A stretch of 64,000 bases of DNA from Escherichia coli (GTDB taxonomy: Bacteria; Pseudomonadota; Gammaproteobacteria; Enterobacterales; Enterobacteriaceae). The stretch's first letter is position 1, and each line of letters starts with the position of its first letter. Positions 1,427-15,166 of this stretch are shown here, piece after piece. The stretch lies in NCBI RefSeq assembly GCF_044324875.1, contig NZ_CP172185.1. One strand, 5' to 3'. Below the pieces are notes generated by a model. That model did not search any database, was not told the DNA's origin, and saw only the letters and a program-made list of their open reading frames with translations. The position numbers and the translations under genes were made by a program.

Positions 1427-1971
1427 AAACGGGAGCCGAAGCCATCCGGGCGCTGGCCACGCAGCTCCCTGCGTTTCGTCAGAAACTGAGCGACGGCTGG
1501 TATCAGGTGCGTATTGCCGGGCGTGATACAGGCGAAAACGAATTATCAGCCCGTCTTAATGAACCGCTGGCAAATGGTGCCGTGATCCACATCGTGCCGC
1601 GTCTGGCGGGAGCCAAACGTGGTGGTGTGTTTCAGGCAGTGCTGGGCGCGGCGCTGATTGCGGTGGCATGGTGGAACCCTGCAGGCTGGCTGGGGGCTGC
1701 GGCTTTATCGGGCATGTATGCGGCAGGGGCCAGTATGGTGCTCGGTGGTGTGGCGCAGATGCTGGCACCGAAAGCCAGAATGCCCGGAGTATCAGCCACG
1801 GATAACGGCAAACAGAACACCTATTTCTCCTCACTGGATAACATGGTTGCCCAGGGGAATGCTCTGCCCGTTCTGTACGGTGAAATGCGCGTGGGGTCAC
1901 GGGTAATTTCGCAGGAGATCAGCACAGCGGATGAGGGGGATGGCGTCCGGGTTGTGGTGATTGGTCGCTGA
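1324..1971 (+). CDS. Phage tail assembly protein I (lambda gpI-like)
   Basis: MAATHTLPLASPGMARICLYGDLQRFGRRIDLRVKTGAEAIRALATQLPAFRQKLSDGWYQVRIAGRD... matches lambda I; overlaps the K 3' end as in lambda. Confidence 0.85.
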   Translation: MAATHTLPLASPGMARICLYGDLQRFGRRIDLRVKTGAEAIRALATQLPAFRQKLSDGWYQVRIAGRDTGENELSARLNEPLANGAVIHIVPRLAGAKRGGVFQAVLGAALIAVAWWNPAGWLGAAALSGMYAAGASMVLGGVAQMLAPKARMPGVSATDNGKQNTYFSSLDNMVAQGNALPVLYGEMRVGSRVISQEISTADEGDGVRVVVIGR

Positions 1972-3659
1972 TGAAAAACGTTTTATGTGAAACCGCCTCC
2001 GGGCGGTTTTGTCGTTTATGGAGCGTGAGGAATGGGTAAAGGCAGCAGTAAGGGGCATACCCCGCGCGAAGCGAAGGACAACCTGAAGTCCACGCAGTTG
2101 CTGAGTGTGATCGATGTCATCAGCGAAGGGCCGATACAAGGACCGGTGGATGGATTAAAAAGCGTGCTGCTGAACGGTACGCCGGTGCTGGACAGTGAGG
2201 GGAATACCAATATATCCGGCGTCACGGTGGTATTCCGGGCCGGTGAGCAGGAGCAGACGCCGCCGGAGGGATTTGAATCCTCCGGCTCCGAGACGGTGCT
2301 GGGTACGGAAGTGAAGTACGACACGCCGATTACCCGGACCATCACGTCGGCAAACATCGACCGTCTGCGCCTGACCTTCGGTGTGCAGGCACTGGTGGAA
2401 ACCACCTCAAAGGGGGACCGGAATCCGTCGGAAGTCCGCCTGCTGGTTCAGATACAGCGTAACGGTCGCTGGTTAACGGAAAAAGACATCACCATTAAGG
2501 GCAAAACCACCTCGCAGTATCTGGCCTCGGTGGTGGTGGGTAACCTGCCGCCGCGCCCGTTCAGTATCCGGATGCGCAGGATGACGCCGGACAGCACCAC
2601 AGACCAGCTGCAGAACAAAACGCTCTGGTCGTCATACACCGAAATCATCGATGTGAAACAGTGCTACCCGAACACGGCACTGGTCGGTGTGCAGGTGGAT
2701 TCGGAGCAGTTCGGCAGCCAGCAGGTGAGCCGTAATTATCATCTTCGCGGGCGCATTCTGCAGGTGCCGTCGAACTATAACCCGCAGACGCGGCAATACA
2801 GCGGTATCTGGGACGGAACGTTTAAACCGGCATACAGCAACAACCCGGCCTGGTGTCTGTGGGATATGCTGACCCATCCGCGCTACGGCATGGGGAAACG
2901 TGTTGGCGCAGCGGATGTGGATAAATGGGCGCTGTATGTCATCGGCCAGTACTGCGACCAGTCAGTGCCGGACGGCTCTGGTGGCACGGAGCCGCGCATC
3001 ACCTGTAATGCCTGGCTGACCACACAGCGTAAGGCGTGGGATGTGCTCAGTGATTTCTGCTCGGCGATGCGCTGTATGCCGGTATGGAACGGGCAGACGC
3101 TGACGTTCGTGCAGGACCGACCGTCGGATAAGGTGTGGACCTATAACCGCAGTAATGTGGTGATGCCGGATGATGGCGCGCCGTTCCGCTACAGCTTCAG
3201 CGCCCTGAAGGACCGCCATAATGCCGTTGAGGTGAACTGGAGTGACCCGGATAACGGCCAGGAGACGGCGACAGAGCTTGTGGAGGACACGCAGGCCATT
3301 GCCCGTTACGGTCGTAACGTCACGAAGATGGATGCCTTTGGCTGTACCAGCCGGGGGCAGGCACACCGCGCCGGGCTGTGGCTGATTAAAACAGAACTGC
3401 TGGAGACGCAGACCGTGGATTTCAGCGTGGGTGCTGAAGGGCTTCGCCATGTACCGGTGCAAAATGGCATCTGAATCGATCGCAGTTTGGCATTCGAATC
3501 GATCATGATTTGGCATCCATCTCCGATCACAGTTTGGCATCACAATCGATCACGATTTGGCATGCTTCCGATCATTGATTGGCATCCTGCCAGTCACTCC
3601 GGGAATTAACTCTTTTCACCACAGTCTCCATTGCCGTGTTTAAACCAGTGGAGACGTCA

Positions 3660-5225
3660 ATGTCCAGAAAGAGAAAATCCAGGAGCACTATGGAAACCTG
3701 TTTTAAGATCCTTCAGCTCAAGTTCGACAAGAAGCTGACTAACCGTTGTATCGGACTGACGTTACACATCAGCGCCTCAACCGTTTTTGAGGTTCTTGCC
3801 CGCTTCAAAGCCTCTTCTCTGTCATGGCCATTACCTGCTGATATATCCCATGACACGCTGGAGAAACTCATTTTTCCGCCCAAAGACACCTTTGCATCAG
3901 AGCTTGTAATGCCTGACATGTTGTACTTCGATACGGAAATGAGAAAACCAGGTGTGACGCGGCAACTGTTGTGGATGGAATACAAGGCACAGGCGGGTAA
4001 CAAAGCGATGGGATACTCGCACTTCTGCCGTTGCTACCGGGAGTGGAAAAAAACGCGACGTCTCTCCATGCGCCAGGAGCATCGTGCCGGCGAAAAGCTT
4101 TTTATCGACTTCTGTGGTCCTACGGTTCCTGTTATTAATCCGGACACCGGTGAGATACGCCGCGTGGCAATCTTCGTGGCCGTAATGGGGGCGTCCAACT
4201 ATACCTACGTTGAAGCGTGCGAAGGTCAGGACATGATGTCATGGTTAAATGCCCACAGCCGTTGCCTGACCTTCCTGGGCGGCGTACCGAAGCTGCTCAT
4301 CCCCGATAACCTCAGAAGCGCAGTGAAAAAGGCCGATCGATATGAGCCTGTCATCAACGACAGTTATCAGGCACTGGCTGAGCACTATGGCACGGTTATC
4401 ATCCCGGCCCGACCACGCAAACCTAAAGATAAACCAAAAGCAGAAAACGGCGTCCTCATCGTTGAACGATGGCTTCTTGCCCGCATCCGTAATGAAACCT
4501 TCCACACGCTCAGGGCGCTGAATGCGCGCCTTAGGGAGTTACTGACAGACATGAATAACCGGCCAATGAAGGGGTACGGCAATCAAACCCGTGCAGAACG
4601 CTTCCGCATACTGGATGCGCCAGCACTCTCTCCGCTGCCTCTGGCACCTTATGAATACACGGAATACAAAGCTGTGAAGGTTGGCCCTGACTACCACGTT
4701 GAATATGCCCGTCACTGGTACTCCGTTCCACACGAACTGGTCGGTCAGCGTCTGTCACTGAAGGCGGGGCAGTCGGTGGTACAGCTCTGGCACAAGGGGC
4801 AGTGTGTGGCGCAACATCCGCGCAGCACACATGAATATAAACACACAACCAATCCGCTTCACATGCCAGAGCGCCACCGGCAGCACGGGACATGGACACC
4901 GGAACGCCTGATCGAGCAGGGAAAACGTACGGGCCCGTCCACAGGCCGGGTGGTTGAATCCATGCTGAAGGCAAAACCCCATCCGGAACTGGCTTATCGT
5001 GCAGTTCTGGGGCTGCTGGCACTTCAGAAAAAATACGGCCCGGAACGGCTGGAAAAGGCCTGTTACGTTGCCCTGCACTATAACGCCCCTGACAGACGCT
5101 TTATCGACAATCTGCTGCGTCACCATCGGGAGAACCTGGAGCTTCCATTATCCCGCCAGGGCGAACAACATCCGGCATATGCTTCAGAGCATGAAAACCT
5201 GCGTGGTCCGGGCTACTACCACTGA
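3660..5225 (+). CDS. istA: IS21-family transposase IstA
   Basis: About 520 aa with N-terminal HTH region (...LSWPLPADISHDTLEKL...) and an IstA-like central/C-terminal region; start chosen at ATG 3660, upstream alternative start possible. Confidence 0.75.
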   Translation: MSRKRKSRSTMETCFKILQLKFDKKLTNRCIGLTLHISASTVFEVLARFKASSLSWPLPADISHDTLEKLIFPPKDTFASELVMPDMLYFDTEMRKPGVTRQLLWMEYKAQAGNKAMGYSHFCRCYREWKKTRRLSMRQEHRAGEKLFIDFCGPTVPVINPDTGEIRRVAIFVAVMGASNYTYVEACEGQDMMSWLNAHSRCLTFLGGVPKLLIPDNLRSAVKKADRYEPVINDSYQALAEHYGTVIIPARPRKPKDKPKAENGVLIVERWLLARIRNETFHTLRALNARLRELLTDMNNRPMKGYGNQTRAERFRILDAPALSPLPLAPYEYTEYKAVKVGPDYHVEYARHWYSVPHELVGQRLSLKAGQSVVQLWHKGQCVAQHPRSTHEYKHTTNPLHMPERHRQHGTWTPERLIEQGKRTGPSTGRVVESMLKAKPHPELAYRAVLGLLALQKKYGPERLEKACYVALHYNAPDRRFIDNLLRHHRENLELPLSRQGEQHPAYASEHENLRGPGYYH

Positions 5226-5241
5226 CAGAAGGAACAACAGT

Positions 5242-5997
5242 ATGAGTGATAACCTGTTAAACAAACTGACCCAACTGAAACTCCCGGCGATGGCCGGGAG
5301 CCTGATACGGCAGCGGGAAACGCCTCAGACCTACGACGAACTGTCGTTCGAGGAAAGGCTGACGCTGCTGGTTGATGACGAGCTTCTGAGCAGGGAAAAC
5401 AGCCGTGTGGCACGGTTGAGAAAAAATGCCGGCCTGAAATACCAGGCAACACCGGAAGGGCTGCGCTATCCGGCCTCAAGAGGTCTGCGGGCTGAACAGA
5501 TGAGAGAACTGCTGAACGGCCACTACATAACCCACAGGAAAAACCTGCTGATAACCGGTCCGACAGGATGTGGCAAGAGCTGGATAGCCAATGCGCTGGG
5601 CGAACAGGCATGTCGACAGAAACACAGCGTCCGGTACTGTAGAACCGGGCGATTACTGGAACAACTGGCTCAGGGACGTGTTGATGGCAGCTGGCTGAAA
5701 TATCTGAAACAGTTGCAAAAAATACAGGTTCTAATCCTGGACGATCTGGGGCTGGAACAGTTAAGTAACGCCCAGTGTAATGACCTTCTGGAGCTCATAG
5801 AGGATCGTTACGGACAAAGCAGCACGATAGTGGTAAGCCAGTTCCCGGTAGATAAATGGCATGGTCTGATGGAGAACCCAACAACAGCAGATGCCATCCT
5901 GGACAGACTGGTACATAACTCACACCGAGTGGTCCTTCAGGGAGAGTCACTGAGGAAAAATCCCCCGGTAGTGGAAAGCAGCGAAAAAACGCGTTAA
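5242..5997 (+). CDS. istB: IS21-family helper ATPase IstB
   Basis: 251 aa; Walker A GPTGCGKSWIANALG; Walker B LILDDLG; typical IstB size and position after istA. Confidence 0.85.
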   Translation: MSDNLLNKLTQLKLPAMAGSLIRQRETPQTYDELSFEERLTLLVDDELLSRENSRVARLRKNAGLKYQATPEGLRYPASRGLRAEQMRELLNGHYITHRKNLLITGPTGCGKSWIANALGEQACRQKHSVRYCRTGRLLEQLAQGRVDGSWLKYLKQLQKIQVLILDDLGLEQLSNAQCNDLLELIEDRYGQSSTIVVSQFPVDKWHGLMENPTTADAILDRLVHNSHRVVLQGESLRKNPPVVESSEKTR

Positions 5998-8218
5998 AAA
6001 GCGGTAGAAAAAGTTAAGTTCCCGGTTGATCGAATGGATGCGAATCGCTGATCGGACTTCGATGCCAATCCGTGATCGAATAGAGCGGAATACGCATACC
6101 GGGCGATGTCATTGAAATCTGTGATGATGACTATGCCGGTATCAGCACCGGTGGTCGTGTGCTGGCGGTGAACAGCCAGACCCGGACGCTGACGCTCGAC
6201 CGTGAAATCACGCTGCCATCCTCCGGTACCACGCTGATAAGCCTGGTTGACGGAAGTGGCAATCCGGTCAGCGTGGAGGTTCAGTCCGTCACCGACGGCG
6301 TGAAGGTAAAAGTGAGCCGGGTTCCTGACGGCGTTGCCGAGTACAGCGTGTGGGGGCTGAAGCTGCCGACGCTGCGCCAGCGCCTGTTCCGCTGCGTGAG
6401 TATCCGTGAGAACGACGACGGCACGTATGCCATCACTGCCGTGCAGCATGTACCGGAAAAAGAGGGCATCGTGGATAACGGGGCACACTTTGACGGTGAC
6501 CAGAGCGGCACGGTGAATGGTGTCACGCCGCCAGCAGTGCAGCACCTGACTGTCGAAGTCACCGCAGACAGCGGGGAGTATCAGGTACTGGCCCGCTGGG
6601 ACACGCCGAAGGTGGTGAAAGGCGTGAGTTTCATGCTTCGCCTGACCGTGGCAGCGGATGACGGCAGTGAGCGGCTGGTCAGCACGGCCCGGACGACGGA
6701 AACCACATACCGCTTCAGGCAGCTGGCGCCGGGGAACTACAGGCTGACAGTCCGGGCAGTAAATGCCCGGGGGCAGCAGGGAGACCCGGCGTCGGTATCG
6801 TTCCGGATTGCCGCACCGGCAGCGCCGTCGCGGATTGAGCTGACGCCGGGCTATTTTCAGATAACCGCCACGCCGCATCTTGCCGTTTATGATCCGACGG
6901 TGCAGTTTGAGTTCTGGTTCTCGGAAAAGCGGATTACCGATATCAGGCAGGTTGAAACCACAGCCCGTTATCTTGGTACCGGAAGTCAGTGGCTTGTCTC
7001 CGGCCAGAATATTAAACCTGGCCATGATTATTACTTTTATATCCGCAGTGTTAACACTGTCGGTAAATCGGCATTCGTGGAGGCAGTCGGTCGGGCGAGT
7101 AATGATCCTGCCGGTTACCTTAATTTTTTCAGGGGGGCGATAAATAAAACGCATCTGGGACGGGAGATCAATGAACGCATTGATGCCTCTGCACGGCGCA
7201 CTGAAGTTGAGCAACTGGAGAATGCGATTAACCGCGAAATGACGCAGCTGGAGAATGCGATTAACCGCGAAATGACGCAGCTGGAGAAAGATGTGAGGCA
7301 GCGTGCGGAGCGTGATATCGCAGAGGTGACGAAAAAAATCACGGCGTCTGAAAACAGCATAACGGAACTGGTGGCGAAAAAGAGCGGTGAACAGTCGCTG
7401 GCCATTGCGAAAGTCGACAGGAAAGTTGACAGCGTGAGCAGTGAAATCCGGCAGACAGTAAGCAGGAGCACGGAGGAGAACAGCCGACAGATAGCGCAGG
7501 TCAGGCAGTATGTTGATGATAAAAGTGCGCAAATAAGTACTGTTGTGGCGAAAAAGAGCGGTGAACAGTCAATGGCCATTGCGGAAGTTGACAGAAAAGT
7601 TGACAGGATGGGCAGCGAAATCCGGCAGACAGTAAGCAGGAGCACGGAGGAGAACAGCCGACAGATAGCGCAGATCAGACAGTATGTTGATGATAAGGGA
7701 AGTCAGATCAAACAGAGCACGGATAAAAAACTGGGATCCTGGAATGCCAGCATTGAGCAGATACAGAAAGTTCAGGAGGACACGCGCCGGAACCTGAACA
7801 GCATGTGGGCTGTGAAGCTGCAGCAGACACGGGATGGACGTCTCTATATTGCAGGTATTGGTGCCGGAATCGAAAATACGTCTGACGGAATTCAGAGTCA
7901 GATCCTGATGCAGGCAGATCGTATTGCGATGATTAACCCGGAAAATGGCAATACAACACCTTTGTTTGTGGCTCAGGGTGATCAGCTGTTCATGAATGAT
8001 GTTTTCATGAAAAAACTGACCGTGGATTTTGCCAGAGTGACGGGAGATATCCGGTCAGATAATTTTCATTCCGGTAGTCCGGGGTGGCGTTTATCAAGAA
8101 ACGGCAGCCTTGAAATTAACTCAGGAAGGCCCGGCGCAGGCCGCCTGTTTTTCAATGGCGAGCGAATCGACGTATATGACGATAACAATGTGTTAAGAGT
8201 ACGACTGGGGAGACTGTA

Positions 8219-8479
8219 ATGTTCGGAGTCCGGGTATGGCGCAAAGGGCGCCTTGTGACACATGAAATAAACCCAACAGGGGTGCTGGATGTGATCACTG
8301 AAGGGACGGGGCAGCGTTCTTATACTCCTTTGCAGGGCTGGCGTCTGGAAGTCTGTTCACCGGCCATTCTGATTAACGGTCAGGGAAGTCATACCAGTGC
8401 CAGTGTATCCGGCTGGACAGTGCACTATGCCAACACAAGCTGGCTAAGACCCGTGCTGGTCATGATAAGGGGGATCTGA
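8219..8479 (+). CDS. Hypothetical phage protein, translationally coupled to J (TAATG overlap)
   Basis: 86-aa ORF starting on the J stop codon; no motif I can recognise. Confidence 0.4.
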   Translation: MFGVRVWRKGRLVTHEINPTGVLDVITEGTGQRSYTPLQGWRLEVCSPAILINGQGSHTSASVSGWTVHYANTSWLRPVLVMIRGI

Positions 8480-9162: not shown

Positions 9163-9408
9163 ATGAAAATAATCGTCTGCACTTTTTTGCTGTTTCTTGT
9201 ATCAGGTTGCGCGGGGTACCGTTCCGTTACGGAGAGAGTCCGGTGCACCGGTGTGCTGAGTCCCGGGGTTTTACAGCGAGCTTATACGGTAGATCTTACA
9301 GGGAAAATAGAAACGAAAAGCGGCACTGTGTATAAAGTATCAGCTCCGAGATTTTATGGTCAGTGGGTGAGTGAAGATATGTTTACGAAAGTTTCGTGCG
9401 TGAAGTAA
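9163..9408 (+). CDS. Small phage lipoprotein, candidate Cor-like superinfection-exclusion protein
   Basis: 81 aa; signal peptide with lipobox MKIIVCTFLLFLVSGC; lies where lom/cor-type genes sit in lambdoid phages. Function is inferred. Confidence 0.5.
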   Translation: MKIIVCTFLLFLVSGCAGYRSVTERVRCTGVLSPGVLQRAYTVDLTGKIETKSGTVYKVSAPRFYGQWVSEDMFTKVSCVK

Positions 9409-9483
9409 TCATAAAAACACCCGATTGTAAATGAATGACGACGCCCGCAATTTTGCGGGATTATTTTTATTTGTGGAGCGAGT

Positions 9484-10812
9484 ATGGCGGCTGTAAAAAT
9501 TTCAGGCGTGCTCAGGGACGGAACCGGAAAACCGGTACCGGGATGCATTATTGAGCTGAAAGCGAAGAGAACCAGCGAGACAGTCATCGCCACGACAGTG
9601 GCTTATGGCATGCCGGAAGAGACGGGGAGTTACAGTATGGATGTGGAGCCAGGAATATACAGGGTGACACTCAATACAGAAGGTTACCGTCCTTCGTATG
9701 TGGGAGATATCGTGGTCAGGGAGGATTCTTCACCGGGAACACTGAATAAATTTCTGATGGAGATGGAAGATGCTCCTTATTATCCGAAGGCGTTGTCAGA
9801 GCTGGAGGCTGTGGTGCAGTCCATACTGCACAGAGCAGAGTCCGCGGCATCTGAGGCGGAGGAAGCCCGGAAGCGAGCAGCATCTGCCCGGGGACCACGA
9901 GGAGAGAAAGGGGATACCGGCGCTCGTGGTGAAAGAGGCATTACCGGGCCACAGGGGCCAAAAGGTGAAACAGGAGCACGTGGCCCGGCAGGACCACAGG
10001 GACCAAAAGGTGAAACAGGTGAACGCGGTCCGGCAGGTCCACAGGGACCAAAGGGCGATACAGGTGAACGCGGCCCGGCAGGTCCACAGGGACCAAAAGG
10101 TGAAACAGGTGCACGTGGTCCGGAAGGTCCACAGGGAGCAAAAGGTGAAACAGGTGAACGCGGCCCGGCAGGTCCACAGGGAGCAAAGGGCGAAACAGGT
10201 GCACGTGGTCCGGAAGGCCCTCAGGGTCTGAAGGGAGAAAAGGGTGAGCGAGGAGAAAAAGGCCCTAAGGGGGATAAAGGAGATCCGGGAGGTCCACAGG
10301 GACCAAAAGGTGAAACAGGTGAACGTGGCCCGGCAGGTCCACAGGGACCAAAAGGTGAAACAGGTGAACGTGGCCCGGCAGGTCCACAGGGACCAAAGGG
10401 CGATACAGGTGAACGCGGTCCGGCAGGTCCACAGGGGCCAAGAGGGTATACAGGTGAACGCGGGCCGACAGGTCTACAGGGGCCAAGAGGGTATACAGGT
10501 GAACGCGGGCCGGCAGGTCCACAGGGGCCAAGAGGAGAAGCGGGGCGGCCAGCGAGCGTCGGAAGTGTTTATTCCGTGGGGTCTTATGTTCTGGGGATCA
10601 TAGAACGAAATCATGAGATAACAAATACCCGTCAAATACCCGGGTATCGTATCAGACAGGCCGTTATTGTGTCGTCGTCATCGGATAAACTTACAGATAT
10701 CCGCTTTTTATTTGGCAATCCTATGCTTGGTACATGGATGTTATGCACAACTAACATGGCGGTGAATAATATCAGTGGGACGATTTGGGGCCTGTTTCAG
10801 AGAATACTGTGA
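9484..10812 (+). CDS. Prophage side tail fiber protein with collagen-like Gly-X-Y repeat region
   Basis: N-terminus [29 protein letters not shown]... resembles the Stf N-terminal domain of E. coli prophages; about 220 aa of GxY triplets ([19 protein letters not shown]...). Confidence 0.8.
9886..10548 (+). repeat. Tandem, roughly 45-bp coding repeats (collagen-like Gly-X-Y) inside the tail fiber gene
   Basis: Repeated [15 protein letters not shown] units at nucleotide level; the ORFs in other frames and on the opposite strand over this stretch are repeat artefacts. Confidence 0.8.
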
Positions 10813-11002
10813 CAGGGGGAGAAATGAATGAAGGTCGATAAAATCACGTCACCAGTGTGGGCTGACAGGGGTCATACGACCATAAACTGTATAGTGAAGT
10901 TTTCAGACGCGGAAACAGAATGTGTATTTACAGCAAGTGCGGATGATCCGTAACCGGCTCATTTAAACCGTCTGGTCTGTTTCCTCCGGCTCTACAAAAA
11001 TA

Positions 11003-11680
11003 ATGTCCATCATTTTTAATGGACACTATCGTATGAAACACCGGACCTGGATCACTGAAGCTTTACGTCTTCACTTTGAAGAACATTTACCCCGGGTTGT
11101 GGCCGGGCGTCGCCTGGGTGTACCAAAATCAACAGTTTGTAGTATGTTCGTGCGCTTTCGGAGAGCTGGCCTTTCGTGGCCTTTGCCCGCAGGCATGTCG
11201 GAGCAGGAACTTGATGCCTGCCTTTACGGACAATTTTCCACGGTACCAGTCGTACGTCCTGAAAGCACCGTTATATCCGAAGCCCCCGTGGTAAAAAAAC
11301 GTCCCCGGCGGCCCAACTTCCCTTATGAGTTTAAAATCGCCTTAGTGGAGCAGTCACTGCAGCCCGGAGCCTGTGTGGCGCAGATCGCCCGGGAAAACGG
11401 AATCAACGATAACCTGCTCTTCAACTGGCGCCATCAATACCGGAAAGGTGGCCTGCTGCCTTCCGGAAAAAATATGCCGGCACTGCTTCCCGTGACGTTA
11501 ACGCCGGAGCCGGATAATAAAATCCCGGCCCCCGCACAGGAACCAGAGCAGATAAATACACCGTCCGACAGTCTGTGTTGTGAGCTGGTTCTGCCGGCCG
11601 GAACTCTCAGGCTTAAAGGTAAACTGACGCCGGCGTTATTACAGACACTTATCCGCGAAATAAAAGGGAGCAGCCACTGA
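11003..11680 (+). CDS. tnpA: IS66-family accessory protein (orfA/TnpA) with N-terminal HTH extension
   Basis: C-terminal part ...PNFPYEFKIALVEQSLQPGACVAQIARENGINDNLLFNWRHQYRKG is IS66 orfA-like; N-terminal part carries an LSWPLPA HTH-like motif. Start codon uncertain. Confidence 0.7.
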   Translation: MSIIFNGHYRMKHRTWITEALRLHFEEHLPRVVAGRRLGVPKSTVCSMFVRFRRAGLSWPLPAGMSEQELDACLYGQFSTVPVVRPESTVISEAPVVKKRPRRPNFPYEFKIALVEQSLQPGACVAQIARENGINDNLLFNWRHQYRKGGLLPSGKNMPALLPVTLTPEPDNKIPAPAQEPEQINTPSDSLCCELVLPAGTLRLKGKLTPALLQTLIREIKGSSH

Positions 11681-12027
11681 TGATATCTCTCCCTGCAGGT
11701 TCGCGTATCTGGCTGGTTGCAGGTATCACCGATATGCGAAATGGCTTTAACGGCCTGGCATCAAAAGTTCAGAACGTCCTGAAGGATGACCCGTTCTCCG
11801 GACACCTGTTCATCTTCCGCGGACGCCGGGGTGACCAGATAAAAGTGTTGTGGGCTGACAGTGACGGACTGTGCCTCTTCACCAAACGCCTGGAGCGGGG
11901 CCGCTTCGTCTGGCCAGTCACCCGTGACGGCAAGGTGCACCTTACTCCGGCTCAGTTATCCATGCTTCTTGAAGGTATCAACTGGAAGCACCCGAAACGA
12001 ACGGAACGCGCTGGAATCCGCATATAA
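11680..12027 (+). CDS. tnpB: IS66-family TnpB (Orf2)
   Basis: 115 aa MISLPAGSRIWLVAGITDMRNGFNGLASKVQNVL...; overlapping start with orfA stop. Confidence 0.85.
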   Translation: MISLPAGSRIWLVAGITDMRNGFNGLASKVQNVLKDDPFSGHLFIFRGRRGDQIKVLWADSDGLCLFTKRLERGRFVWPVTRDGKVHLTPAQLSMLLEGINWKHPKRTERAGIRI

Positions 12028-12046
12028 CCCGTTGTAAAGTGAGGAT

Positions 12047-13618
12047 ATGGACACCTCACTTGCTCATGAGAACGCCCGCCTGCGGGCACTGTTGCAGACG
12101 CAACAGGACACCATCCGCCAGATGGCTGAATACAACCGCCTGCTCTCACAGCGGGTGGCGGCTTATGCTTCCGAAATCAACCGGCTGAAGGCGCTGGTTG
12201 CGAAACTGCAACGTATGCAGTTCGGTAAAAGCTCAGAAAAACTTCGTGCAAAAACCGAACGGCAGATACAGGAAGCACAGGAGCGAATCAGCGCACTTCA
12301 GGAAGAAATGGCGGAAACGCTGGGTGAGCAATATGACCCGGTACTGCCATCCGCCCTGCGCCAGTCTTCAGCCCGTAAACCGTTACCGGCCTCACTTCCC
12401 CGTGAAACCCGGGTTATCCGGCCGGAAGAGGAATGCTGTCCTGCCTGTGGTGGTGAACTCAGTTCTCTGGGATGTGATGTGTCAGAGCAACTGGAGCTTA
12501 TCAGCAGCGCCTTTAAGGTTATCGAAACACAACGTCCGAAACAGGCCTGTTGCCGGTGCGACCATATCGTGCAGGCACCAGTACCTTCAAAACCCATTGC
12601 ACGCAGTTATGCCGGAGCGGGGCTTCTGGCCCATGTTGTCACCGGGAAATATGCAGACCATCTGCCGTTATACCGCCAGTCAGAAATATACCGTCGTCAG
12701 GGAGTGGAGCTGAGCCGTGCCACACTGGGGCGCTGGACAGGTGCTGTTGCTGAACTGCTGGAGCCGCTGTATGACGTCCTGCGCCAGTATGTGCTGATGC
12801 CCGGTAAAGTCCATGCTGATGATATCCCCGTCCCGGTCCAGGAGCCGGGCAGCGGTAAAACCCGGACAGCCCGGCTGTGGGTCTACGTCCGTGATGACCG
12901 TAACGCCGGTTCACAGATGCCCCCGGCGGTCTGGTTCGCGTACAGTCCGGACCGGAAAGGTATCCATCCACAAAATCACCTGGCCGGTTACAGCGGTGTG
13001 CTTCAGGCCGATGCTTACGGTGGTTACCGGGCGTTATACGAATCCGGCAGAATAACGGAAGCCGCGTGTATGGCTCATGCCCGGAGAAAAATCCACGATG
13101 TGCATGCAAGAGCGCCCACCTACATCACCACGGAAGCCCTGCAGCGTATCGGTGAACTGTATGCCATCGAGGCAGAGGTCCGGGGCTGTTCAGCAGAACA
13201 GCGTCTGGCGGCAAGAAAAGCCAGAGCCGCGCCACTGATGCAGTCACTGTATGACTGGATACAGCAACAGATGAAAACACTGTCGCGTCACTCAGATACG
13301 GCAAAAGCGTTCGCATACCTGCTGAAACAGTGGGATGCACTGAACGTGTACTGCAGTAATGGCTGGGTGGAAATCGACAACAACATCGCAGAGAACGCCT
13401 TACGGGGAGTGGCCGTAGGCCGGAAAAACTGGATGTTCGCGGGTTCCGACAGCGGTGGTGAACATGCGGCGGTGTTGTACTCGCTGATCGGCACATGCCG
13501 TCTGAACAATGTGGAGCCAGAAAAGTGGCTGCGTTACGTCATTGAACATATCCAGGACTGGCCGGCAAACCGGGTACGCGATCTGTTGCCCTGGAAAGTT
13601 GATCTGAGCTCTCAGTAA
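12047..13618 (+). CDS. tnpC: IS66-family transposase TnpC
   Basis: 523 aa; N-terminal coiled coil, Cys cluster CCPACGGEL...CCRCDH, DDE-type catalytic region. Confidence 0.85.
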
Positions 13619-14475
13619 ATATCAATACGGTTCTGACGAGTCGCTTACGATGATCCTGAGTCTTACGGTCGTGAAATATTTGAAGCCTGCATAAGAGGTG
13701 ATGCAGGGCCGGTAGGTGAGTACCGGGCAAATGATGATATGGCTGTGGAAGAAGCACGCAGGATGAAAAACGCGGAGATAAATGCCTGGCGTGATGCGAT
13801 GGAGGCGTCAGGGTATGTTTTTGAGCACAGAGGACGGAAATGGGATTATGGAAAGGAAACCATGACACGTCTTGGAATGTCGGCATCAGCGGCCAGAGGC
13901 GGTGTGTTGCCGGAAGGATTTTTCTGGACGGACGCAGAGAATAATGATGTACCGATGACGGCAGATGAACTGATATCCCTGAGTGATGCTGCTGGTAAAG
14001 CGATGTTCAGGAAAGGCCTTGAAATACATATAAGGCAAAGGGAGATGAAAAAGGCAATAGCAGAACTGAGTGACAGTGAAACCATTCTGGCGTACAGGGT
14101 TGGATGGTGAAACTGATAAAAAAACCCCTCTGAAAATTCTGTCAGAGGGGGGCAAGGATCTATATTTATTATGCGGTAATGCTTTCACTCCGGTAATTAA
14201 TTTCAGTGATTAACTGCTTTCGATCAATAAAGGAATTGCAAAAAGGTGATCTTGTTCACGACATTGTGGATGATAATATGCCTGATGTCTGAATCCGGAA
14301 ACAGTGATCTGGCGGGTTTCATGTGAAGTTGACGGATAAAAAATCCGCACGACCAGACAGACGTGCGGTTTACGAAATTCGTAACAAGAGGCTTTTCTAG
14401 GGATCACGTGGTGCGTGCCACGTGAAATTTTTGTAGCGCAAAATGTGTAATGTGTAAATACAAGGAAGGAAAAAG

Positions 14476-14805
14476 TTAAATCGGTGGAAGTCCATACCGG
14501 GAACGTGCACGGTTACATGCTTCGTTTTCAATACCATTTTCACCAGACATGGCAAATTCCCGGCACGTTGATGAACGGTTTTCGTAGATGGTACAGCTCG
14601 CTTCTTTACCTGGTGTTCCTGCAAGGGCAATACATCTGGGGTTTTTCTGGTTTGTACCGATCATGCATCGGTGCAAAGGCGATACTTGTTCAGTAAGTCT
14701 GGCTGGAATGGTGCCGCCAGCATCGTCGGCTTCGGCCCAGTAAAAAGAGACGCGGAAAAATGCACAACAGGCACCACACGTTATGCATGGATTTGGATTG
14801 CTCAT
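14476..14805 (-). CDS. Small Cys-cluster protein (CxxCxxCC, YkgJ/UPF0153-like putative zinc or iron chelating domain) at the prophage edge
   Basis: 109 aa [28 protein letters not shown]...; motif C-x2-C-x2-C-C plus further conserved Cys. Confidence 0.5.
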
Positions 14806-15166
14806 AATTCACCACAGCTATAAATTATAAAGAAAACCGCAGCATGTCGTATGCAAGAACGTGCTGCAGCTGGCTGGTTAACTTTCGATAGTGCGAGTAT
14901 TGAATGATTTCCAGCCGTTACCGATTTTATATAACTGCAGTGGAATTATTCAACACAGGCAAAACGGAATAAGCTGAGAAAAAAGCGTACTTTCCCAATC
15001 TGGGGCAAATCACGTCTGAATGACACCTGACAACAGATGGTGGCCTCAAGAAGGCTTGGAATATTCTTCTTTAATGTTATGTAAATTATTGATTTTTCGT
15101 GTACGATTTTAAGACATTTATTCCAAGAAAAATTTTTAACTCTTTGATTTTTCGACTCTGTATCAT

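Follow-up and report, generated by a model that had tools for sequence, protein, structure and literature searches.

Insertion sequences (ISs) of the IS66 family in Escherichia coli, such as IS679, ISEc8 and ISEc23, have a common family architecture and duplicate 8 bp of target DNA. ISCro1, which was first named from Citrobacter rodentium ICC168 and is common in E. coli, shares the three-gene layout, the GTAA repeats and the 8-bp duplication of the element described here. We analysed a 64,000-nucleotide stretch of an E. coli genome (contig NZ_CP172185.1 of RefSeq assembly GCF_044324875.1; hereafter, the window), which holds the tail end of a lambdoid prophage with two ISs in it. One is an ISCro1 element in a small gene for a protein with the domain DUF4376, directly downstream of a side tail-fibre gene; the other is an ISSso4-like element of the IS21 family in the tail-tip gene J.

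In C. rodentium ICC168, ISCro1 is expanded and active, with 24 copies, and more than half of the IS copies in C. rodentium sit on mobile elements (PMC3072379). In E. coli ST131 it has been found at a 'hotspot for IS integration' upstream of afaA, with a quoted length of 2,824 bp (PMC8764528) compared to 2,699 bp here. IS-riddled E. coli lambdoid prophages, for example those of O157 with IS629, likewise show IS accumulation and inactivated morphogenesis genes, whereas the elements in our window are ISCro1 and an ISSso4-like IS21.

The interrupted gene also has described counterparts. The open reading frames (ORFs) ORF-191A, C, D and E of the P-Eib prophages in ECOR-9 (AF151675, AF151674, AF151676 and AF151091) encode proteins of 191 amino acids (aa) with 57-60% identity to its product over the full length, and they occupy the same place after the tail fibre in a lambdoid prophage. 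Three other proteins with DUF4376, each encoded just after a fibre gene, are needed for functional fibres: gp27 of Alteromonas phage V22 (PMC7289586), gp9 of Alteromonas phage A5 (PMC10579305) and the protein encoded behind the H-fibre in Campylobacter CJIE1 prophages (PMC7882524). Like the 191-aa protein, all three are small and have DUF4376 at the C-terminus. The classical tail-fibre assembly proteins, including lambda Tfa, Mu U and T4 gp38, resemble the 191-aa protein in size, gene position and a conserved-plus-variable build; it differs from classical Tfa (Caudo_TAP, PF02413) in having no Caudo_TAP match.

The ISCro1 insertion and its target gene

We are highly confident in the following reading of the locus as a whole: a simple insertion of ISCro1 into the DUF4376 gene and an independent insertion of an IS21 element into J, in a prophage undergoing decay. 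A transposition-competent copy of ISCro1 inserted into codon 41 of a 191-codon prophage gene and duplicated 8 bp of the target. The target encodes a DUF4376 protein, the 'ORF-191' known from lambdoid prophages of the P-Eib type; it closes the tail operon, behind the collagen-like side tail fibre, and the insertion would inactivate it by cutting its product to 41 residues. Independently, an ISSso4-like IS21 element entered the essential tail-tip gene J with duplication of 6 bp. Both events are likely to be recent and strain-specific, and together they mark a prophage that can probably no longer make infective particles.

The original prediction placed an IS66-family element with a perfect 8-bp duplication at 10942-13656, and the borders, the repeats and the IS66 protein models all confirm it (Table 1). 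The two copies of GATGATCC match over these 8 bp and no further, to the left or to the right; at two given positions, such a match would arise by chance with a probability of 4^-8, or about 1.5 × 10^-5. The element starts with GTAACCGGCTCA and ends with the reverse complement of GTAAGCGACTCG. Its terminal inverted repeats are imperfect, agreeing at 18 of 26 positions, and GTAA starts both. The ATG of tnpB overlaps the TGA stop of tnpA (ATGA), and Pfam divides TnpC into LZ_Tnp_IS66 (residues 46-121), zf-IS66 (128-172), DDE_Tnp_IS66 (186-472, E-value of 5 × 10^-103) and DDE_Tnp_IS66_C (479-516). Every IS66 feature for which the element was tested is thus present: the gene order tnpA-tnpB-tnpC, the TnpC domains, the GTAA repeats and the 8-bp duplication.

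Table 1. Coordinates of features in the window and of ISCro1 insertion sites in the fibre/DUF4376 module. Module sites are given as window-equivalent positions.
Feature	Position	Strand	Remarks
Complete ISCro1-type IS66-family insertion sequence, 2,699 bp	10950..13648	+	100% identical full-length copies elsewhere
8-bp target-site duplication GATGATCC, left copy	10942..10949		exact match to right copy
8-bp target-site duplication GATGATCC, right copy	13649..13656		exact match to left copy
ISCro1 left terminal inverted repeat, starts GTAACCGG	10950..10975	+	compared with reverse complement of right end
ISCro1 right terminal inverted repeat, ends ...CGCTTAC	13623..13648	+	
tnpA, 225 aa, IS66 accessory protein	11003..11680	+	NF038385 IS66_access_TnpA, 295.8 bits, cut-off 150
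tnpB, 115 aa, IS66 accessory protein	11680..12027	+	NF033819 IS66_TnpB, 128.9 bits, cut-off 50
tnpC, 523 aa, DDE transposase	12047..13618	+	NF033517 transpos_IS66, 477.9 bits, cut-off 180
Interrupted DUF4376 gene, 5' fragment, 41 codons then TAA	10828..10953	+	break within codon 41
Interrupted DUF4376 gene, 3' fragment, codons 42-191	13657..14110	+	holds whole DUF4376 domain (aa 73-180)
ISSso4-like IS21-family element, 2,639 bp	3458..6096	+	identical copies annotated IS21/ISSso4
6-bp duplication TACCGG, left copy	3452..3457		
6-bp duplication TACCGG, right copy	6097..6102		
istA	~3660-5225		within IS21 element; IstA-like product
istB	~5242-5997		within IS21 element; IstB-like product
J (tail-tip/host-specificity) gene, 5' part	2032..3457	+	joins 6103-8219
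J gene, 3' part	6103..8219	+	joins 2032-3457
Module site, AR_0085 (L003)	9404-9411	-	copy 98.6%; flanks overlap at 9404-9414; ~75 bp before fibre ATG
Module site, CP033635 (L097)	9703-9710	-	copy 98.8%; flanks overlap by 8 bp; fibre N-terminal domain
Module site, SRR14687536 contig (L092)	~10684	-	copy 99.9% over 842 bp present; fibre 3' end
Module site, window	10942-10949	+	duplication GATGATCC; codon 41 of DUF4376 gene
Module site, TUM9803 (L002)	13937-13944	+	duplication GAGAATAA; inside DUF4376 gene
Module site, F1022 (L001)	14356-14363	+	copy 99.9%; duplication GACAGACG; 253 bp after gene
Intact collagen-like side tail-fibre gene, 442 aa	9484..10812	+	PHROG 366 'tail fiber protein', E-value 2.6e-103
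G+C-rich hairpin after interrupted gene	14125..14150		terminator-like on minus strand only (T-run there, A-run on plus)
ykgJ-like gene	14476-14805	-	then capsid-gene scrap, as in AR_0085

ISCro1 is widespread in the species. A megablast search with the element found copies with a coverage of 80% or more in 1,492 of 5,426 complete E. coli genomes; many E. coli copies are 100% identical over the 2,699 bp, and RefSeq labels them 'IS66-like element ISCro1 family transposase' together with tnpA and tnpB. A copy with at least 99% identity was present in 1,791 records. No further copy of either IS end was found within the 64-kb window, and a query with the junction at 10942-10949 was matched in none of the 5,426 genomes. 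Compared to the copies that RefSeq labels ISCro1, nothing is different in the element itself. ISCro1 is already catalogued and the event is a textbook simple insertion; its exact site alone is new to the 5,426 complete genomes.

The target was an intact gene before the insertion. Removal of the element and one copy of the repeat joins 10828-10949 to 13657-14110 in 576 nt, an unbroken frame of 191 codons followed by a stop codon, just as had been predicted. Compared over 893 nt, the IS-free reconstruction is uninterrupted in F1022 (99.9% identity), AR_0085 (99.8%) and TUM1886 (99.4%), and the AR_0085 allele lies in the same prophage at the same chromosomal site. RefSeq annotates the intact allele as a single 'DUF4376 domain-containing protein' (WP_000861763.1, 191 aa), and the exact protein is present in 605 index blocks of public assemblies. 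In the window, the TAA that ends the 41-codon product comes from the GTAA of the ISCro1 end. Downstream of the element, an in-frame ATG at 13739 opens a 123-aa ORF that keeps the whole DUF4376 domain. The 191-aa protein would therefore be lost, with 41 residues left before the stop. The hairpin behind the gene may also end the late operon, and as the interrupted gene is the last of that operon, no downstream phage gene should be affected.

An exact look-up of the 41-aa product returned two short contigs, L092 (SRR14687536) and L093 (GCA_902163405.1). Both contigs end at that codon and carry the intact allele to their ends (GATGATCC then TG; the allele continues ...GATGATCCTG). These matches are an artefact, since an exact search over many short contigs selects partial genes cut by contig ends, and they give no evidence of the same insertion.

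The reconstituted protein has DUF4376 (PF14301) at residues 73-180 (E-value of 3 × 10^-20). A scan of NCBIfam gave no match, and the protein falls in PHROG 1141, 'tail fiber protein'. An exhaustive search of 1.84 billion representative proteins found 679 relatives. The best 150 of these are 75-362 aa long, mostly about 130-260 aa, and are conserved in the C-terminal two-thirds and variable in the N-terminal third. Fold matches in BFVD are themselves DUF4376 proteins; among solved structures, fibre chaperones included, we found no counterpart in sequence or in fold. The best matches among deposited phages, at 57-61% identity over the full length, are the ECOR-9 P-Eib ORF-191s and genes of recent Escherichia phages.

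The gene starts at 10828, 15 nt after the fibre stop at 10812, and the same arrangement of fibre and DUF4376 gene is found in F1022, TUM9803, AR_0085 and ten further loci. RefSeq names the fibre homologues 'prophage tail fiber N-terminal domain-containing protein'. Their N- and C-terminal parts are conserved between strains, and the number of collagen-like (Gly-X-Y) repeats varies: the fibre protein has 442 aa in the window, compared to 529 to 676 aa in F1022, TUM9803 and other loci.

Because the gene directly follows the fibre, distant DUF4376 proteins act as chaperones and phage records carry labels of this kind among a mixed set, the 191-aa protein is most likely a fibre-folding chaperone, by analogy with those proteins. 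If so, maturation of the side fibre would be lost in this prophage. The original prediction called the target a tail-fibre-assembly gene. Judged by its sequence, with DUF4376 as its one domain and no Caudo_TAP, the gene does not belong to the classical Tfa family; as a guess at function from position and domain, the name is fair. Homologues among fibre-assembly or chaperone proteins do exist.

The insertion in J and the state of the prophage

A second IS of a different family had been predicted within 10 kb in the same tail module. This is the ISSso4-like IS21 element in J, inserted with a 6-bp duplication 7.5 kb upstream of ISCro1. Its termini are of the TG...CA type (TGCAAAATGG... and ...GAATACGCA), with five tandem copies of a 20-nt repeat spaced at 22-24 nt at the left end and further, inverted ones on the right. 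Where the element occurs elsewhere with 100% identity, its genes are labelled 'IS21 family transposase' and 'IS21-like element ISSso4 family helper ATPase IstB', and Pfam IstB_IS21 is recorded on a copy of 99.96% identity in locus L103. The features of the IS21 family are all present, namely istA followed by istB, TG...CA ends, terminal repeats and a short (4-8 bp) duplication. When the element and one repeat are removed, the two parts of J fuse into an open frame of 1,180 codons, whose identity to genes labelled 'phage attachment tail tip protein J' or 'phage tail protein' is 97-99%. Within the 3' part of J, about 150-175 bp of a coiled-coil-like stretch are duplicated in tandem (7371-7522 and 7545-7696), and J measures 3,543 nt here and in F1022 and 3,717 nt in AR_0085.

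The two insertions are independent simple transpositions into intact genes, with duplications of the length typical of each family. Like the ISCro1 junction, the IS21/J junction was matched in none of the 5,426 complete genomes, so both events look strain-specific and recent. A recent date is also suggested by the identity of both elements to copies elsewhere. In lambda, J is essential for infective particles. As J is broken here, the prophage is very probably defective, and its infectivity would have been lost through the disruption of J.

AR_0085 has the same prophage, with tail genes 97.7-99.8% identical and the 191-codon gene intact, next to the same chromosomal genes (ykgJ-like, yodB, zinT, msrQP, hiuH and hprRS). 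In F1022, TUM9803 and several other genomes a YadA-like (Eib-type) gene follows the DUF4376 gene, whereas the prophage in the window has no eib-type cargo. At 14111-14830, the sigma-factor-like and DinI-like cargo that is present in F1022, TUM9803 and many other loci is likewise absent. The window stays homologous to F1022 as far as about 14424, where there is a hairpin (14404-14425).

The chromosome, with ykgJ-like, yodB and zinT, begins about 300 bp after the DUF4376 gene. As sampled, the rest of the window (14800-64000) is ordinary E. coli chromosome, with annotation read to about 40000, and includes zinT, msrQP, hiuH, hprRS, hchA, a porin gene, dcm-vsr, yedA, dgcQ, rcsA and the fli operon. 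In MLI106K3 (L091), the same chromosomal site holds a lambdoid prophage of another kind, with its own set of fibre genes, so this is a recurrent locus of prophage integration.

Recurrent insertion in the fibre module

Tolerance of insertions in this region had been proposed, and related prophages indeed carry many independent ISs of several families in the module formed by the fibre and DUF4376 genes. ISCro1 has inserted there at least six times independently, each time at its own site, within 2.25 kb of IS-free module sequence (Table 1), and each copy for which both flanks are present has an 8-bp duplication of its own. A seventh copy, 95.8% identical, was found at 1762-4460 of locus L069, where it sits at the start codon of a fibre homologue that is 59% identical, with the duplication TGGCAGTC. 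About 14 distinct complete genomes carry the gene, and four of them have ISCro1 in the module. A survey with a 5.6-kb IS-free query, whose matches broke up at the collagen-like repeats, lists the genomes with the module only roughly. The ISCro1 copy in CP033635 has an IS256-type element nested in it.

Other elements share the module with ISCro1. An ISSso4-like IS21, the copy with 99.96% identity to that in the window, lies in the fibre gene of L103 (GCA_027274645.1, 1777-4414) at window-equivalent position 9682-9687, with the 6-bp duplication GGTTAC and some 20 bp away from where ISCro1 lies in CP033635. Elements of the IS3 family (L094 and L098), IS1 (L100) and the IS256 family (L097) are also found in or beside the module, and L098 has another IS66-type element near it that differs from ISCro1, with a 141-aa TnpA and a 530-aa TnpC. 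A look-up of the intact protein gave ten non-redundant loci, five of which have at least one IS in or beside the module.

The insertion sites of ISCro1 are AT-richer than their surroundings. In a sample of 38 IMG/VR loci with the ISCro1 left end (L004-L041), guanine-plus-cytosine content (GC) averaged 0.42 at 37 distinct sites compared to 0.51 in the flanks (Wilcoxon p = 3 × 10^-6). The module as a whole has a GC of 0.52, its ISCro1 sites have 0.35-0.47, and the GC-rich collagen repeats contain no site. The first three duplications begin with GA, but this candidate consensus was rejected, as wider samples share none. Orientation follows position: it is minus for the three copies up to the fibre 3' end and for that of L069, and plus for the three inside or behind the DUF4376 gene, a split observed post hoc in small numbers, with a chance of about 2/64 for six copies. 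Two of the ISCro1 sites are followed, about 35-40 bp downstream, by a terminator-like hairpin, at 9444-9459 for that of AR_0085 and at 14404-14425 for that of F1022. A literature search on target-site choice in IS66 returned nothing. To our knowledge, no target specificity has been described for the family.

One explanation is that the module is a genuine regional target for ISCro1, through its AT-rich segments, hairpins, or transcription or replication state. The six insertions in 2.25 kb with the seventh in a related fibre gene, the share of gene-carrying genomes affected and the AT-richness of the sites would all fit, as would the presence of ISCro1 at another 'hotspot for IS integration' in ST131 (PMC8764528). 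Conversely, the presence of IS21, IS3, IS1 and IS256 elements in the same module fits general tolerance better than targeting by ISCro1, whose duplicated 8-mers have no consensus. Moreover, ISCro1 occurs in just one of 49 loci with relatives at 55-67% identity. In the IMG/VR contigs, 5 of 38 sites are near homologues of J, the fibre or the DUF4376 gene; this is about the share expected of tail genes and not clearly an enrichment. All of the hot-spot counts were also made post hoc, without a proper neutral baseline. We therefore consider a regional target unlikely, if worth keeping in view, and somewhat more doubtful still that the module is a true ISCro1 hot spot that might reflect a target-selection rule of IS66 elements rather than tolerance.

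Lambda PaPa has no functional side tail fibres, so side fibres are dispensable even for a live lambda. As a prophage gene is, in addition, neutral to the host, we read the module mainly as an insertion-tolerant sink, to which ISCro1 adds a mild preference for AT-rich sites.

Remaining alternatives and implications

Three further readings of the insertion itself fare much worse. First, the insertion could be adaptive or regulatory, either shutting off a costly fibre or coupling the transposase or the 123-aa DUF4376 ORF to late transcription of the phage. ISCro1 is co-oriented with the tail operon, the whole DUF4376 domain lies downstream of it behind an in-frame ATG, and all three copies in or after the DUF4376 gene are in plus orientation. 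However, a consensus scan found no outward promoter at the ISCro1 end, J is broken too, which makes fibre function moot, and the orientation pattern is the post hoc one described above. We regard an adaptive role as very improbable.

Second, and with just as little credit, the position of ISCro1 might be an assembly artefact in which a repeated IS was collapsed or misplaced. Many E. coli genomes have several copies of the element, assemblies often go wrong at repeats, and no other genome shares the junction. Yet misplacement of a repeat should yield neither a perfect duplication of 8 bp, the typical length for the family, nor flanks that rejoin into a known intact gene, and the same argument holds for the IS21 element and its duplicated 6 bp. 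Third, a rearrangement mediated by the IS (deletion, inversion or recombination between two copies), with flanks that were not originally adjacent, might be suspected from the missing eib (YadA-like), sigma-like and dinI-like cargo of F1022 and TUM9803, but it is the least credible of all and effectively refuted by the perfect duplication and by joined flanks that are colinear with the intact allele at 99.9%, and since AR_0085 has the same cargo-less right end with no IS at the position equivalent to 10942, the missing cargo is unrelated to ISCro1.

Several points also weigh against the interpretation that we favour, of a simple ISCro1 insertion in a putative fibre chaperone gene of a decaying prophage. 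Both insertions are known here from assembled sequence. The window holds the tail end of the prophage only, with the head, lysis and regulatory regions outside it, and the disruption of J is the sole ground for calling it defective; the predicted picture of a defective prophage accumulating insertions is plausible for the part that we see. As for the chaperone, V22 gp27, A5 gp9 and the CJIE1 protein are very distant in sequence, and none is among the named matches of the 191-aa protein; it is for such distant members of the DUF4376 group that the role is demonstrated. Deposited phages name the homologues inconsistently, as 'tail fiber assembly protein', 'tail fiber protein' or 'hypothetical protein'. 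Finally, Caudo_TAP (PF02413) is absent from the 191-aa protein, for which Pfam gives no domain besides DUF4376 at an E-value up to 10.

The main use of these results is correct annotation: a DUF4376 pseudogene, a broken J and a probably defective prophage. Beyond this, the 'ORF-191'/DUF4376 proteins of E. coli lambdoid prophages are probably fibre chaperones distinct from classical Tfa; their family is large, and its fold, though structurally unsolved, is predicted with confidence. The fibre module is a natural data set for asking whether IS66-family elements choose their targets or survive where they are harmless. If the module were a hot spot that follows a target-selection rule, it would provide the first handle on target choice in the IS66 family.

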